A DNA stretch of 64,000 bases from positions 15,687 through 79,686 of IMG/VR virus record IMGVR_UViG_3300001598_000043. One strand, written 5' to 3'. A model generated the notes under the pieces. It saw only the letters and a program-made list of their open reading frames with translations, did not search any database and was not told the DNA's origin. Position 1 is the stretch's first letter. Every line of letters starts with the position of its first letter. The stretch comes from a virus (taxonomy: Duplodnaviria; Caudoviricetes). Below, piece after piece: positions 20,008 through 26,359 of this stretch. The translations under genes were made by a program, and so were the position numbers.

Positions 20008-21090
20008 TTATTCCTCTGTGAGTAATCCAATAATACTTACTACTTCATCGTTAACTAACTTAATTGCACTATCAACACCATACCAAATTTCAATAGTATC
20101 AGATGTACAAGCCTTAATCTGTGACTTAAGTGTATTCACGTAGATGTTTCCAACAAAATCTGCAACATTATCTGAATCCTTGTAGTTGATTAATTCTGTA
20201 CCTGTTGATGTCTCACTTGATACAATCAATCCATCTTTTGTGAATGTCATTGTGATTGAACCTTCACTAAATGGGTCTATGAATAACGCAATTCTGTCTA
20301 AAGTCTGTAAGAATGTAGTCTTATCAATCTTACACATACTCTCGAATTCAGTATTAACAACATCCATAATATCACTAATCTGATATGTTTCAGTATAACT
20401 TACCAACTTACCATCAATTACACACTTATCGGTAACAAACTGAATCTCACCGTCATTATATCTAACTGATATTGTATCCTCGTTGATAACACCAACTAAA
20501 TCCATCAATTCTGCACTAATAAATAATGGCTCTTCTGTATTAAACAACTTATTGTCTAATGCATTGATTACCATCATATCTGTTGCAACCACGTTGTTTC
20601 CAACGAAATAATTGGTGTAACAAGGTGTATTCATTGCAACTGCTAATGCAGGTTTTAATGAATTAAGAATGGTTTTTACAGTAGATAATTTAAGTGTTCC
20701 AATCTCATTATCAATTATTGTATCTGCTGATTTTGGGAATTTAACTACGCTACCATCCTCATCAAGAATAATATCAATCTTGTATGTACCATTACCTTTC
20801 ACCTCTAAATAGGTATCCTCAACAGTAAGTGTGATATCCTGACTTGTGGTATTTGCAATTAACTTTGCAAACAAATCTGCTGATACAGTAACTTGGAAAT
20901 CGTCTGCATTTACGCCTGTTTCTTTGACAAATAAATAATTGGTCATATCAGTTGTAGATAATGTAAGAACACCATCCTTTAATTCAATTGATAGAAGACT
21001 TGTAAGTGGCATTAATTTATTATTACTAACACCCTTAATTGATTTTGACATCATTTCCTGTAATTTTGTTGTTGATAAAGTAAGTTTCAT
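20008..21090 (-). CDS. dnaN: Sliding clamp (DNA Pol III beta-like)
   Basis: 360 aa; LMPLTSLLSIELKDGVLTLSTTDM, FLQTLDRIALF; phage also encodes a clamp loader. Confidence 0.75.
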   Translation of the reverse strand: MKLTLSTTKLQEMMSKSIKGVSNNKLMPLTSLLSIELKDGVLTLSTTDMTNYLFVKETGVNADDFQVTVSADLFAKLIANTTSQDITLTVEDTYLEVKGNGTYKIDIILDEDGSVVKFPKSADTIIDNEIGTLKLSTVKTILNSLKPALAVAMNTPCYTNYFVGNNVVATDMMVINALDNKLFNTEEPLFISAELMDLVGVINEDTISVRYNDGEIQFVTDKCVIDGKLVSYTETYQISDIMDVVNTEFESMCKIDKTTFLQTLDRIALFIDPFSEGSITMTFTKDGLIVSSETSTGTELINYKDSDNVADFVGNIYVNTLKSQIKACTSDTIEIWYGVDSAIKLVNDEVVSIIGLLTEE

Positions 21091-21101
21091 TTTTACCCTC
21101 C

Positions 21102-21917
21102 TTAAAATAGTTTACTTGTCTTTTTAGGTATTGCCTTGTTATAAGGATTTGTGTTTGGTACAACCTTATATGGTCTACCATTTAATCTTGATAAAGATTC
21201 TTGATAATAATTCTCTGATATCTCAAATCCAATAAAATGTCTATTAAGACTCTTTGCAACATAGCAAGTAGTTCCACTACCACTAAATGGGTCTAATACC
21301 ACATCATTTTCATATGAGAATAAATCAATACATAATTGTGGTAATCTCTCTGGAAAACAAGCAATTGTGTATCCTGGTGTAGTTCCTATATGCCATACAC
21401 CACTACAACCCTCCATAAAATCACCTCTACTTATTGTAGATTTCCCTTTATTCTGTTTATTCCACTGATTCTTATATGCAATTAATATTCCCTCATATGG
21501 TGTCTGTATGAATGGGGCAGATGCTGATAACCAACTACCCCAAGCAGTCTGTTTTTTCATTGTTAAATCATCCCACATTGCAATTTTATGTGTATGATAA
21601 CCAATATCATCCATTATGTTCTTAAAATCAAATAATGGGAATCTTGAACAACTATCACCATTCTTTCTTGGTGCATTACAGAAGTAATGATTAATACATA
21701 TTCTTCCATCATCCTTGAGTATTCTATAACACTCTGATAACCACTCTCTTACCCATTTAAGGTAATCTTCCCACTGCATATTATCATCCCAACTATCATA
21801 CTCAATTCCAACATTGTATGGAGGTGAAGTTACAATTAGGTCTACAGAATTATCTTCGACTTGTTTCAATCCTTTGACACAATCCATATTGTATATGTTA
21901 TCAATTTGTAATCCCAT
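21102..21917 (-). CDS. DNA methyltransferase (N4-C/N6-A, beta class)
   Basis: DLIVTSPPYN, VVLDPFSGSGTT, FIGFEIS; start ATG 21917 after AAGGAG. Confidence 0.9.
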   Translation of the reverse strand: MGLQIDNIYNMDCVKGLKQVEDNSVDLIVTSPPYNVGIEYDSWDDNMQWEDYLKWVREWLSECYRILKDDGRICINHYFCNAPRKNGDSCSRFPLFDFKNIMDDIGYHTHKIAMWDDLTMKKQTAWGSWLSASAPFIQTPYEGILIAYKNQWNKQNKGKSTISRGDFMEGCSGVWHIGTTPGYTIACFPERLPQLCIDLFSYENDVVLDPFSGSGTTCYVAKSLNRHFIGFEISENYYQESLSRLNGRPYKVVPNTNPYNKAIPKKTSKLF

Positions 21918-21930
21918 TGTCATCTCCTTT

Positions 21931-23022
21931 TTAGAATAATTTCTTTTGAGTATGTTTGATTCGATTTTCTGCAATTGCAATATACTCTGGATTTAACTCA
22001 CAACCTACGTAGTTTCTGTGATTTTTCTTTGCAACAACACCGACTGTACCACTACCCATAAATGGGTCAAGTACTACTCCACCTTTAGGACAACCAGCTA
22101 ATAAACACTGTCTTACTAATTCCTCTGGAAATGTTGCAAAATGAGCACCTTTAAACTTTGATGGTTGAATTGTCCATACGTCTCTCTTATTACGTTTTCC
22201 TGTGTATTCTTTCATACCTGGTGTATTAGATGCACCGTCTGGTCTTCCACCACCTAATAATTCTTTCTGCCCTACATTAAATGGAGAATTATATCTTGAT
22301 GCGTATAAAGGATTTGCATCCTCTTGCATTGATTCGTGGTCAAAATAATATGTAGGTGATTTAGTTAATAGGAATATATATTCGTGAGACTTTGTACATC
22401 TGTCAGTAACACTTTCAGGCATTGGATTTGGTTTATGCCATATAATATCCTGTCTTAAATACCAACCGTCATTCCTTAAAGCAAATGCCAACATCCACGG
22501 TATCCCTATCATATCCTTTGGTTTACAGGTATTTACAAGATGTTTACTTGTAATATTATCTACACTACCTACATTTGTTTTCTGCTTATCACTTGTAACC
22601 GAACCAGTATTTGATGAATTATAAGTATCACCAATATTCAACCATAGTGTTCCATCGTCTGTCATTGCTCTTCTAATTTCTCTAAAGATTTCAACCAAAC
22701 GATTTATAAAATCCTCTGGTGTTTCTTCTAACCCAACCTGTTCATCAATTCTAATTGCACCACAATCTGGACATACACTTTTGTATATTCCACTTGCACA
22801 AGCAATTCCCATCTCTCTCATTTTCTTATGAGTTCCTGTTGATGCAGTATCACTTATCGGCTTCATATGTTTACAATTAGGGTCTCCACCTTGCCAAGTA
22901 GCAGTTCCATAGTCACGTAAACCAAAATACGGAGGAGATGTTATACAACAATTTATACTATTATCTGGAAATGTCTTTAAAGTATCTAAATTGTTACCTA
23001 AATAAATTTTATTAACGTCCAT
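21931..23022 (-). CDS. DNA methyltransferase (N4-C/N6-A, beta class)
   Basis: CITSPPYFGLRDY, WLNIGDTY, HFATFP, VLDPFMGSGT, GCELNPEY. Confidence 0.92.
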   Translation of the reverse strand: MDVNKIYLGNNLDTLKTFPDNSINCCITSPPYFGLRDYGTATWQGGDPNCKHMKPISDTASTGTHKKMREMGIACASGIYKSVCPDCGAIRIDEQVGLEETPEDFINRLVEIFREIRRAMTDDGTLWLNIGDTYNSSNTGSVTSDKQKTNVGSVDNITSKHLVNTCKPKDMIGIPWMLAFALRNDGWYLRQDIIWHKPNPMPESVTDRCTKSHEYIFLLTKSPTYYFDHESMQEDANPLYASRYNSPFNVGQKELLGGGRPDGASNTPGMKEYTGKRNKRDVWTIQPSKFKGAHFATFPEELVRQCLLAGCPKGGVVLDPFMGSGTVGVVAKKNHRNYVGCELNPEYIAIAENRIKHTQKKLF

Positions 23023-24077
23023 TTTTTGCCCTCTGTTTATCTACGTCCATTCCGTGAGATGTATTAGTTTCTTTTTCTTTTAGTTTGTTACCATCAATAG
23101 TATCACCGTACCATCTGTAAGTTATTTCAACGTCACATTTAATAGGCATCTCAAGTATTTCCTCAGCTGCGTGTGACATAGTATCTGCAAGTAATTTAGA
23201 GCACTCATATGCATTTTCCTCTGGACATTCTGCAATGATTTCATCGTGTACAGGAATAAGAATCTTAAATCCTAATTCTTGAAGTCTTTTATTCCTATGC
23301 AATTCAATCATCGCAAGTTTTGTAAGGTCAGCTGCTGAACCCTGTATTCTTGCATTTACACACTGTCTAACGGCATCAGATATCTTTTTACCATTGTCTA
23401 TAATCCATATGCCCTCTGAATTAGCTTCTTCAAATATTCTCTGTTTATCTTTAAATCTGCACTTTGACAGTTTCTTTAGATAGTAATTTTGAATATGTTC
23501 TGGTACTTCGTACTCTATAGGTTCACCGTTCTCGTCTACGTCTGATTCAAAATCAAGTAAATCATCTGATGGAGATGAACCATCTTTCCACTTAAATTCA
23601 TAATCGGGTAACTGTAAGTCAGGTAATCTTCTTTTTCTACCACAAACCGTTGTAACAAATCCTACTTCGTGTGCCATATCTAAACTGTCTTGTTCAAACT
23701 GTTTAATAGCTGGAAAACCTTGAAAAACACTATCTTTTATCTGTTGTGCTTTTTCAGTTGTTGTATTGAGCTGTTCAGCAATACTTGGAACTCCTCTTCC
23801 GTACAACACTCCAAGCAAGATTGATTTTGCTTGTGTTCTTCTTTCTTTTCCCTCTTTGTTTGTAGTTCCATCTTCTCTAAACTCTCGACAATCATCGTAG
23901 GATTTATTGAAGGCCTTACTTGCAATCTCACTATATAAGTCCTTTCCTTGCATAAATGTATCATACATCTGTGGGTCACCCTGTTGTCTACATAATGCCG
24001 CTAAACACTTCGGTTCTTGTTGACTAACTAAAGTCACTAGACATTAATACATATTGTGTTCTTGTCCGTAACTTCAT
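23012..24077 (-). CDS. polA: Family A DNA polymerase, C-terminal polypeptide (motifs A, B, C); frame broken by a 4-nt duplication at 24023-24030
   Basis: ATG 24077 with SD GGGGGTG gives MKLRTRTQYVLMSSDFS-stop; removing one TAGT gives SSDFSQQEPK (motif A), RTQAKSILLGVLYG (motif B), VHDE (motif C); 1062 nt after correction. Confidence 0.85.
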
Positions 24078-24313
24078 AACATAAATCACCCCCTTCAACT
24101 TCTTTAATACTATTAACATAAACTATATCATCAGTATCAACAATTAAAGCATCTCCAACTTTTATACTCGATGCACGTTTAAACCCATTTGGTGTTTCTA
24201 CTTCACACCACTTATTAAGTGTAAAAGTATTATTAGTGTCTACTATCTCATTTTCAGAATTAGTAGCTACAAACATCTTTCTAATGTCTTTGTTGTGAGA
24301 TGGTATATTTTGT
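24037..24313 (-). CDS. polA: polA N-terminal polypeptide exon 2: QNIPSHNKDIRKMFVAT plus degenerate Hint/intein-like tail
   Basis: Splicing joins AAC CT to A CAA AAT ATA CCA (NLQNIP); tail TLNKWCEVETPNGFKRASSIKVGDALIV resembles intein block A; stop TAG 24039-24037. Confidence 0.8.
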
Positions 24314-25043
24314 CAAAATTGTTACCTTATAGGCTCTTTATCCTATAATTCAAACACTTGTTTATTCGTGTTTGTTCAGACTATCTCTCAAACCGTTTAT
24401 AAATTGGCCATTAATTTTATTTCTTCTATTTTCTAAATCTTTTATATGATGTACCCCTTGATGTTCAGAGCGTGTAGTTAATTCAAGATTTTCAATTCGA
24501 TTATCCAGTTTATCACCATTTTTATGATGTACTATTTCATCACTATTTAGTGGTCTTCCTAAATAATCTTCCATTACTTTTCTATGAACTTGATATCGTC
24601 CACTCACCGTAGATACACATTTGTATCCACCATATATATATACTCTCTGGGTTTACGATTTCCGCCACGTCTATTAGCAATCTTCAAAGCACTTACTTTA
24701 TGTAAAATTGATGATTGTGTTCGTCCTAAATATTTTGAACATTTTACTAATCCAAGGGTCTCATAATTTTCTTTTAGCCATTCAACATCTTTCTCACTCC
24801 ACCATTTGTACATATTTGTACCTCCTTTATCAAGGAATATTTTATCATAAGAAAGTATGTTTTGTAAACGGTCAACGGGCGCTCGTGTCAGTTTTATTGT
24901 TTTTGCTACTCAACTGTTAGTCGTTACACCTCTTCACTACTTTTATGCAATTCGTGAATTTGGCTCGGTATTCGCATTTCAGCCTTTACCGAATTCACCC
25001 GTTTATGCATTGTACATATTACTATGCACACGCCCACAAATTT
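24314..25043 (-). mobile_element. Group I self-splicing intron (IA2-like, 730 nt) in polA
   Basis: 5' exon ends U and intron ends G. IGS UUUGUGGG pairs with 3' exon ACAAA (P10) and 5' exon CCU (P1). P3 AACGGGUG (24996-25003) pairs with CGCCCGUU (24874-24881). P7 GACUA (24918-24922) pairs with UAGUC (24379-24383). P8 ACCGUUUA pairs with UAAACGGU and encloses the ORF. P9 hairpins present. Confidence 0.93.
24362..24813 (-). pseudogene. Intron-encoded HNH homing endonuclease, frameshifted at an (AT)n tract
   Basis: Two ORFs (24604-24813, 24362-24607) fuse to 149 aa if 2 nt are removed from ATATATATATA (24632-24642); VHRKVME...[16 protein letters not shown]...EH. Confidence 0.85.
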
Positions 25044-26359
25044 AGGTTTGGTTCACTACTTGAGAATCTACCTGTATCTGCACCGTACTGATTAAACTTA
25101 CAATGTACTCTACCGTCTTTTGGGTTAACACAATTAGGCATCTTGTCTATGTAAGTATCAATTAATTTAGATGTTCCTCTATAATCTAAAATAGCTTTAC
25201 ATATTGGATGGTCGATATTAGATAATACTTCTTCACCTGTTCCTCTCAATGGTTTTTTAGTTTTCTTATCAATCGGTTGAGGTAGTTTCAATATATCATA
25301 TAACAATGTAGCTAACTGTGTTGGAGATGCAACATTTATTGGGTCATCCAATTTACAATCACTATGAGTTACAATATATCTCGAAATCTCATCTTCATAG
25401 TCATTACAAATATCGTAAAATGTGTTTAGTTTCTCTTCCAACAAACTATGATATTTCTCTTTTAACTCATTATTATAATCTAAATCTAAAGTAATTCCAT
25501 TATCCTCCATATCAGCAACTACTGATACACAAGGCATCTCAATATTATTGAATACCCAAGCTATATCCTGTAATCCTCTTGACTTGCATATTTCACTATT
25601 CTCATCAAGATATTTACGTTGATACATATATAACTCATATGTAATCTTTGCATCGTGAGCCGCATACAAATAACCTGTGGTAATTGGAATCTGTGAAAAT
25701 GGTATACCCTTAAATAAATCATCAAATTTAAAGGCATCTCCCTCACCACCAAGTACATACTTTTGATGAAGTTTCTTTAAACCATTATTACCAGCTCCCT
25801 CGTTCTCATTTAAACATCGAGCAGCTAAATAACAATCCCATTTACATTCTAAATATACACCTAATCCGTGTCTGATGAATCGTATATCGAAAGCTGCATT
25901 AAACATTATAATATCAACTTTAGCATCTACAATTCTCTGAAATTCTTCTTTAACTACATCAATAGGTAACTGATTCTGTACCTTTGCCATAGTTATATAA
26001 GATATGTGATTTAAAGGGATATATGATGTCTTTTCACCAGGTGTGTAAATACATATACCTACAAGGGTATCTACTAATGGGTCTAAACCTGTGGTCTCTG
26101 TATCAATTGCAATTACATTATTCTCAATACATTTTGATATGTAATTATGCAATACATCTACATCTTGAATAATCAATGATTCTTCTTTAAAATCACCCAA
26201 GTTTTTCTCTACAAATGCATTAATTGTAGATATTCTACCCATAATACCGTTACCACCTCTAACCGAAGTAGCAACGGCTTTAGATTTAGCATTAGACTTC
26301 TTTGCTATAGACATTGATTTAGTTTTATCTGCACGTTGTGGTACATTAAATAAAGCCAT
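25044..26359 (-). CDS. polA: Family A DNA polymerase exon 1 (3'-5' exonuclease, thumb)
   Basis: AIDTETTGLD, FNAAFD, YAAHDA, SPTQLATLLY, GRVHCKFNQYGADTGRFSSSEPNL. Confidence 0.93.

Follow-up and report, generated by a model that had tools for sequence, protein, structure and literature searches.

The DNA polymerase gene (polA, family A) of the phage analysed here is split, and its C-terminal fragment is broken within motif A by four extra bases that create a stop codon; we put at roughly three in four the probability that this site is a programmed short translational bypass, or stop-hop, at which the ribosome would leave the mRNA before the stop and re-pair just beyond it. The site lies in a stretch of 64,000 nt (the window) of an IMG/VR phage record of 79,686 bp, rated by CheckV as 100% complete. 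The closest cultured relatives of this phage are Clostridium phage phiCTP1 and Streptococcus phage Dp-1, at ~49% amino-acid identity, and none of 50,697 GenBank phage records matched the locus by megablast. PF00476 matched only the polA locus in the genome and PF00136 matched nothing, polA being therefore its sole recognisable DNA polymerase. A search for tRNA genes found none in the window, and thus no phage tRNA-Ser is encoded there. The region on the 3' side of polA (20008-23022, minus strand) encodes two N6/N4 DNA methylases (PF01555) and a sliding clamp (PF00712), and the order of the replication module resembles that of phiCTP1.

The polymerase gene, on the minus strand, is interrupted at three places, namely by a putative intron, by a Hint-like tail with its cassette, and by the 4-nt stop insert. 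Exon 1 of the N-fragment (25044..26359, minus strand) encodes the 3'-5' exonuclease domain and the start of the polymerase domain (PF01612; PF00476 positions 27-128) and ends in ...TGRFSSSEPN-L(CT), as aligned to the phiCTP1 and Dp-1 polymerases. The main ORF of the C-fragment (23012..24022, minus strand), reading QQEPKCLAAL... to its stop, is the 336-codon remainder of the polymerase after the coding gap; it holds the rest of motif A and motifs B and C (PF00476, E 4e-48) and is 59-76% identical to its IMG/VR relatives.

The first interruption, a putative group I intron at PNL|QNIP (24314..25043, minus strand), lies where the polA frame breaks after ...SSSEPNL, to resume 730 nt further on with QNIPSHNKDIRKMF. 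A focused Rfam search matched RF00028 (Intron_gpI) at 25053-24821 with an E-value of 6.6e-10 and 44.3 bits, short of the gathering score, which is 50; Rfam applied to 10 kb had missed this match. The putative intron has U before its 5' splice site and G before its 3' splice site, its fold has a z-score of -5.8, and joining of the exons restores PNLQNIPSHNKDIRKMF (PNLQNIPS) as in relatives. It contains an HNH_3 endonuclease gene (24813-24362, minus strand; E 7e-16) broken by a 1-nt frame shift into two ORFs of 69 and 81 aa, the frame changing near 24640, within a (GA)n(TA)n tract; the gene may be decaying, the tract may be prone to slippage, or the break may be an error of sequencing.

Exon 2 of the N-fragment (24037..24313, minus strand) encodes QNIPSHNKDIRKMFVAT and, past IRKMFVAT (xGYVLMSSDFS in relatives), an all-beta Hint-like C-terminal extension of ~60 residues that ends at the stop codon TAG 24039-24037. 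A profile of this tail retrieved 102 cluster representatives among 1.84 billion proteins, mostly C-terminal tails of PolA N-fragments. Its AF2 model is all-beta (pLDDT 76.7), and the PDB neighbours of the model, weak at E 0.065 or weaker, are nearly all inteins or Hint domains, the best being the gp41-1 split intein. The tail has no conserved Cys1 (the position varies among C, I, T, V, N, D and others), no TxxH and no C-terminal HN, and no IntC partner was found for it. Protein splicing was ruled out on the absence of the intein catalytic blocks, and we regard the tail as Hint-derived and not as an intein; with neither intein blocks nor IntC present, trans-splicing is not expected and the N- and C-fragments must assemble non-covalently. 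A tblastn of three extension domains against the 50,697 GenBank phage records likewise gave no match, so that no cultured phage among the records searched carries the cassette; the 61-sequence alignment of the extensions was too diverse to serve for locus searches. Five other N-fragments (P0022, P0034, P0050, P0065 and P0087) appear to carry a genuine intein a little way upstream, whose junctions at the PNLQ motif read ...HNC/HNT/SNC, and this region of the polymerase thus appears to have been invaded by introns, inteins and endonuclease cassettes across lineages. In one relative (L025, 172-560) the N-fragment keeps its own GYVLMSSDFSSQE ahead of the Hint-like tail and the motif-A strand is encoded twice, which suggests that the original insertion point of the cassette was DFS|QQE, the same place as the proposed hop.

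The C-fragment has its own translation signals, which open inside the tail ORF in a different frame. A Shine-Dalgarno-like run, GGGGGTGA (24086..24094, minus strand), precedes the ATG (24077-24075) of a leader ORF (24024..24077, minus strand) of 17 codons, MKLRTRTQYVLMSSDFS, the last of which is AGT 24029-24027, followed by the stop TAG 24026-24024. The minus-strand codons around the break are GAC 24035-24033, TTT 24032-24030, the AGT and the TAG, then a lone T at 24023, after which CAA CAA GAA CCG AAG runs from 24022. Bases 24030-24023 form a perfect tandem TAGT TAGT, breaking motif A as DFS|QQEPK, and deletion of any four of them gives DFSQQEPK, exactly the motif A of 68 uninterrupted relatives, which have no added Ser; the first-pass annotation had read the site correctly as GAC TTT AGT TAG with a 4-nt duplication. 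The candidate landing codon, AGT 24023..24025 (minus strand), overlaps the AG of the stop, is the first downstream match to the take-off codon and restores DFSQQEPK, so that the coding gap proper is the single T at 24026 (minus strand) and the ribosome would shift by +4. An 8-nt tandem repeat is statistically unremarkable on its own, and a take-off codon AGN followed by the stop TAG makes the +4 match automatic, hence the match in the window alone argues little. The exact TAGTTAGT was seen only in this genome and in a 36 kb contig (L035) of the Logan assembly of SRR1221442, which is 100% identical over 3240 nt, motif-A site included, and which may derive from the same reads as the IMG/VR record. 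Since this second assembly is identical at the site, an assembler artefact, which the annotation had kept among its options, is unlikely.

As far as the sequences compared allow, the weight of evidence is in the family rather than in the window site by itself. Searches with the C-fragment, the tail and the proteins from the profile search yielded 17 other distinct cassette loci, or 18 including the window; two contigs (L023 and L024) end too early to show the hop sites. A stop stands directly 3' of the last leader codon in 18/18 loci (among unique sites TAG 12, TGA 3 and TAA 1), and in every one of the 18 the triplet that restores motif A and a long ORF is the first one downstream, in whichever frame, to match bases 1-2 of the pre-stop codon. 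The motif so restored, D[FY]S(Q/A)QEP[KR], is the consensus, without an extra residue. The gap is 1 nt in the window and 1-12 nt in relatives, with inserts of 4-15 bases, and the resulting shifts (+4, +5, +6, +7, +8, +11 and +15) fall into three frame classes in the ratio 6:5:5. The take-off and landing pairs comprise AGT>AGT (window), TCT>TCA, TCT>TCT, TCC>TCT, TCC>TCA, TCA>TCA, GCC>GCT and GAA>GAA, the matched codons across the family thus being for Ser, Ala or Glu; GCC>GCT (Ala) and GAA>GAA (Glu) belong to two distant lineages, with the break displaced downstream by one and three codons. The landing codon differs from the take-off codon at the third base in 9/16 distinct pairs (TCT>TCA eight, TCC>TCA one), where a hop would therefore need a wobble-tolerant tRNA-Ser or two-of-three pairing. 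Many of the TCN cases may have come from one ancestral TCT-TAG-TCA, in which case the independent origins would number ~4 and not 18. The cassette has an endonuclease gene between the N-fragment and the leader in some relatives (GIY-YIG in L005, L006 and L029; HNH_3 in L030), and others, like the window, are without one.

Downstream of the gap the ORF is intact wherever the contig reaches its end (298-391 codons, 46-76% identity). Because indels in the gap have changed its length and the frame repeatedly while this ORF is intact and the leader is constrained (see below), the joining has to be frame-independent, and the absence of an extra Ser from the 68 continuous relatives fits re-pairing and not fresh decoding of the landing codon. 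A conventional +1 frameshift, or out-of-frame decoding in the A site, would instead yield DFSSQQEPK or DFVSQQEPK, with one residue too many for the consensus motif. A +4 shift is equivalent to +1 and places a stop in the A site, as at prfB-type sites, but a tRNA-Ser paired with AGU would find no match at +1 (GUU), no Shine-Dalgarno sequence stands at the prfB-like spacing (~3 nt upstream), and the +5 to +15 shifts of the relatives are out of reach of frameshifting, so that we hold this explanation to be very unlikely. Recoding of TAG or TGA as sense was also considered and rejected: TAA, TAG and TGA are all ordinary stops in the genome, the gap of L006 contains both TAA and TGA, and most gaps are out-of-frame. 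An SD-like run of G before the landing codon occurs in ~12 of the 18 loci, with no spacing, and is not claimed as an element of the site.

The leaders of the cassette loci have 17-22 codons, are basic (MK[KR][LS][LI]R..) and end in the motif-A strand, with an SD-like run 8-12 nt ahead of the ATG or GTG in the loci where this was looked at. Across 14 unique relatives, the YVLMSSD[FY]S codons of the leader showed 269 synonymous against 141 nonsynonymous pairwise differences, the third positions being the most variable. The presence of the SD-like run and start codon, together with differences that are mostly synonymous, indicates that the leader is translated and constrained. In L032, a split gene with no gap, the C-fragment starts in the same manner and reads straight through YVLIGSDFSQQEPK, from which the leader is taken to be the true N-terminus of the C-fragment. 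Three relatives (L086, L091 and L101) have a leader peptide, MKRSIRTRK..., resembling RRSIK, a stretch that we take to belong to T4 gene 60's nascent-peptide signal; the likeness probably reflects shared basic composition only.

These features weigh on the proposal that the inserts are scars of endonuclease immunity, or decay, with a C-fragment made without the motif-A Asp strand, for instance by re-initiation at GTG 24037, or with a dead polymerase whose work is done by another enzyme. The GTG is in frame with QQEPK yet downstream of the Asp codon, as the first-pass annotation had said, and the other loci lack a conserved in-frame start, on which ground re-initiation was rejected. A 4-nt tandem duplication is a common and typical kind of mutation, and the N-fragment of L025 retains a GYVLMSSDFS copy of its own, both of which would suit scars or decay; the coding constraint on the leader codons, the position of the stop immediately before SQQEPK in the in-frame class, the intact downstream ORF at each locus whose contig reaches its end and the lack of another polymerase in the genome would not. 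Scars or decay would, moreover, leave the matched-codon, first-match and stop-adjacency rules unexplained, and we judge this account distinctly unlikely.

Upstream of the take-off codon, folding identified a 5' hairpin (24030..24075, minus strand) in which leader codons 2-5 pair with the 14 nt ending one base before that codon (5' strand 24075-24063, GAAGUUACGGACA; 3' strand 24043-24030, UGUCUAGUGACUUU). The duplex energies were -7 to -13.5 kcal/mol in 17/18 gap-bearing loci (p 0.004-0.13 vs shuffles), as compared with -3.3 kcal/mol (p 0.85) in L032, the one gene serving as gapless split control, and with a mean of -4.9 kcal/mol in 67 continuous genes, 1.5% of which fell at p<0.05. In an 11-sequence gap-free alignment the paired cells made up 88%, a share that dropped to 30-50% when the register was slid, and three pairs of the hairpin change on both sides; the third base of the Ser codon and its partner pass from A-U to G-C via G-U intermediates, and a further clade has GUCG/CGAC. 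The hairpin is thus specific to gap-bearing genes and covaries. It may assist the bypass, or it could alternatively serve translational coupling. The ORFs of the N-fragment and the leader share 41 nt (24037-24077, minus strand) in different frames; the former ends inside the 3' strand of the hairpin, so that its translation would open the hairpin and could couple to it the initiation of the C-fragment.

The same context makes it extremely unlikely that the window insert arose recently in this genome alone, or through an error of sequencing, without relation to the inserts of the relatives. The confinement of the exact TAGTTAGT to this genome and its identical, possibly same-read, contig would fit such an origin, but the break falls at the same codon boundary as in nearly all other cassette loci (the two distant ones lying one and three codons downstream), the insert obeys the same rule within the same leader and hairpin context, and L032, the only insert-free split relative, is also without the hairpin. 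The duplication is private in its exact letters and not in kind, 17 cassette relatives having other stop-containing inserts in the same motif. The first-pass annotation did not note that a homing-endonuclease-type cassette splits the gene, that the hop would come only 17 codons into a C-fragment gene with an initiation of its own, or that a conserved 5' hairpin goes with it. Among the three options that it raised, a recent inactivating mutation is disfavoured by this comparison and the matched-codon stop-hop is favoured, the differing inserts of the relatives obeying its rule.

Removal of the extra bases from the RNA by micro-excision or editing, leaving a continuous mRNA, would be frame-independent too, and a GUGAC...GUCAC pairing could loop out the gap in several loci. 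This pairing shows no covariation, the AGC clade creating a mismatch, and was for that reason rejected as a conserved element; excision would need neither an adjacent stop nor a matched downstream codon, and we know of no mechanism of this kind in bacteria or phages. RNA removal is, to our minds, highly improbable.

The bypass that we favour would proceed as follows. A mobile cassette has cut polA just ahead of motif A, leaving an N-fragment that ends in the Hint-like tail and a C-fragment that starts at its own SD-like sequence and ATG 24077, the 17-codon leader encoding the motif-A strand YVLMSSDFS. While AGU (Ser) occupied the P site and UAG the A site, the peptidyl-tRNA-Ser would release the mRNA, which would slide by 4 nt until the same tRNA re-paired with the next AGU, overlapping the stop. 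Decoding would then restart at CAA and give ...DFSQQEPK... with no added residue, and the hop product, at whatever efficiency it is made, would carry YVLMSSDFSQQEPK. When the ribosome took off, it would enclose the hairpin's 3' strand and leave the 5' strand free; re-zipping behind the ribosome would therefore pull the mRNA forward. The insert may persist by destroying the target site of homing endonucleases such as those carried in the relatives' cassette.

No published report of this polymerase bypass family was found in our literature searches. On comparative grounds, the loci probably represent a widespread natural bypass family in motif A of split phage polymerases, with gaps of 1-12 nt in any frame, borne by endonuclease cassettes and driven by a re-zipping hairpin, and as such they would be the first natural stop-hops. 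If so, dozens of natural variants in codons, gap lengths, frames and hairpins would be at hand for testing take-off, slide and landing, homing endonucleases could be said to make an essential gene depend on recoding, and phage polymerases annotated as 'frameshifted' may be intact genes.

Efficient natural bypassing has so far meant one element, T4 gene 60, besides the mitochondrial byps and some candidates. Gene 60 and the polA cassette are alike in that a mobile endonuclease cassette divides a replication gene that is essential, with the hop early in the downstream gene, and in that the codon of take-off matches that of landing, a stop is adjacent and a 5' stem-loop stands upstream of take-off. 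They differ in that gene 60 encodes a topoisomerase subunit, whereas the present site lies in polA motif A (PF00476) and has no homology to the gene 39/mobA/gene 60 element; mobA adjoins gene 60, while the polA cassette contains GIY-YIG or HNH_3 in relatives and neither in the window. The gene 60 gap is 50 nt with a take-off stem-loop, against 1-12 nt in polA, which leaves no room for a hairpin in the gap; its leader has 46 codons against 17-22, its matched codon is Gly GGA against Ser, Ala or Glu, and the nascent chain at the polA hop, with its 17 residues, falls far short of the peptide signal of gene 60, which counts against a bypass. The gene 60 insert, a 50-nt bypass within the mobA homing-endonuclease cassette (Bonocora 2011, cited in bioRxiv 10.1101/2022.08.31.505936; Manning & Atkins 2022), may guard against the endonuclease, as is proposed for the polA insert. 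A re-zipping 5' hairpin has been proposed as a driver for gene 60 (bioRxiv 10.1101/2024.12.09.627546), whose bypassing was called isolated until homologous cases appeared in other phage topoisomerase genes (Manning & Atkins 2022).

A prfB-type +1 frameshift is unlike the polA site in all three respects set out above, that is, the pairing from AGU to GUU, the Shine-Dalgarno spacing and the +5 to +15 shifts of relatives. Synthetic E. coli stop-hops, reportedly roughly 1% efficient, are artificial, and their inefficiency speaks against the bypass; the polA family is natural and conserved, sits in an essential gene and has a dedicated hairpin as well as variants that are out of frame (+4 in the window). 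The TCT TAG TCA of the relatives, which would be the natural counterpart of those constructs, has the same layout of nine bases for one residue (Weiss et al. 1987, reviewed in PMC5009743). According to the same 2016 recoding review, short matched-codon counterparts had long been presumed, and no natural in-frame stop hop was known (PMC5009743). Fractured genes, in which split inteins occur with a free-standing homing endonuclease (Dassa et al. 2009, PMC2677866), share with the polA loci a broken replication gene, an endonuclease in between and a Hint-like tail. Unlike the split inteins of fractured genes, the polA tail is without the conserved Cys1, TxxH, C-terminal HN and IntC partner. The byp inserts of Magnusiomyces capitatus are tens of bases long; they occur in mitochondria, the A site being occupied by an unused codon, and are largely independent of context, whereas the polA hop would involve bacterial ribosomes, a true stop and one fixed site per gene. 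The two systems are nonetheless alike in that translation passes over many short inserts within coding sequence and in that an approximate codon match, of two bases in three, is found at take-off and landing (PMC5009743).
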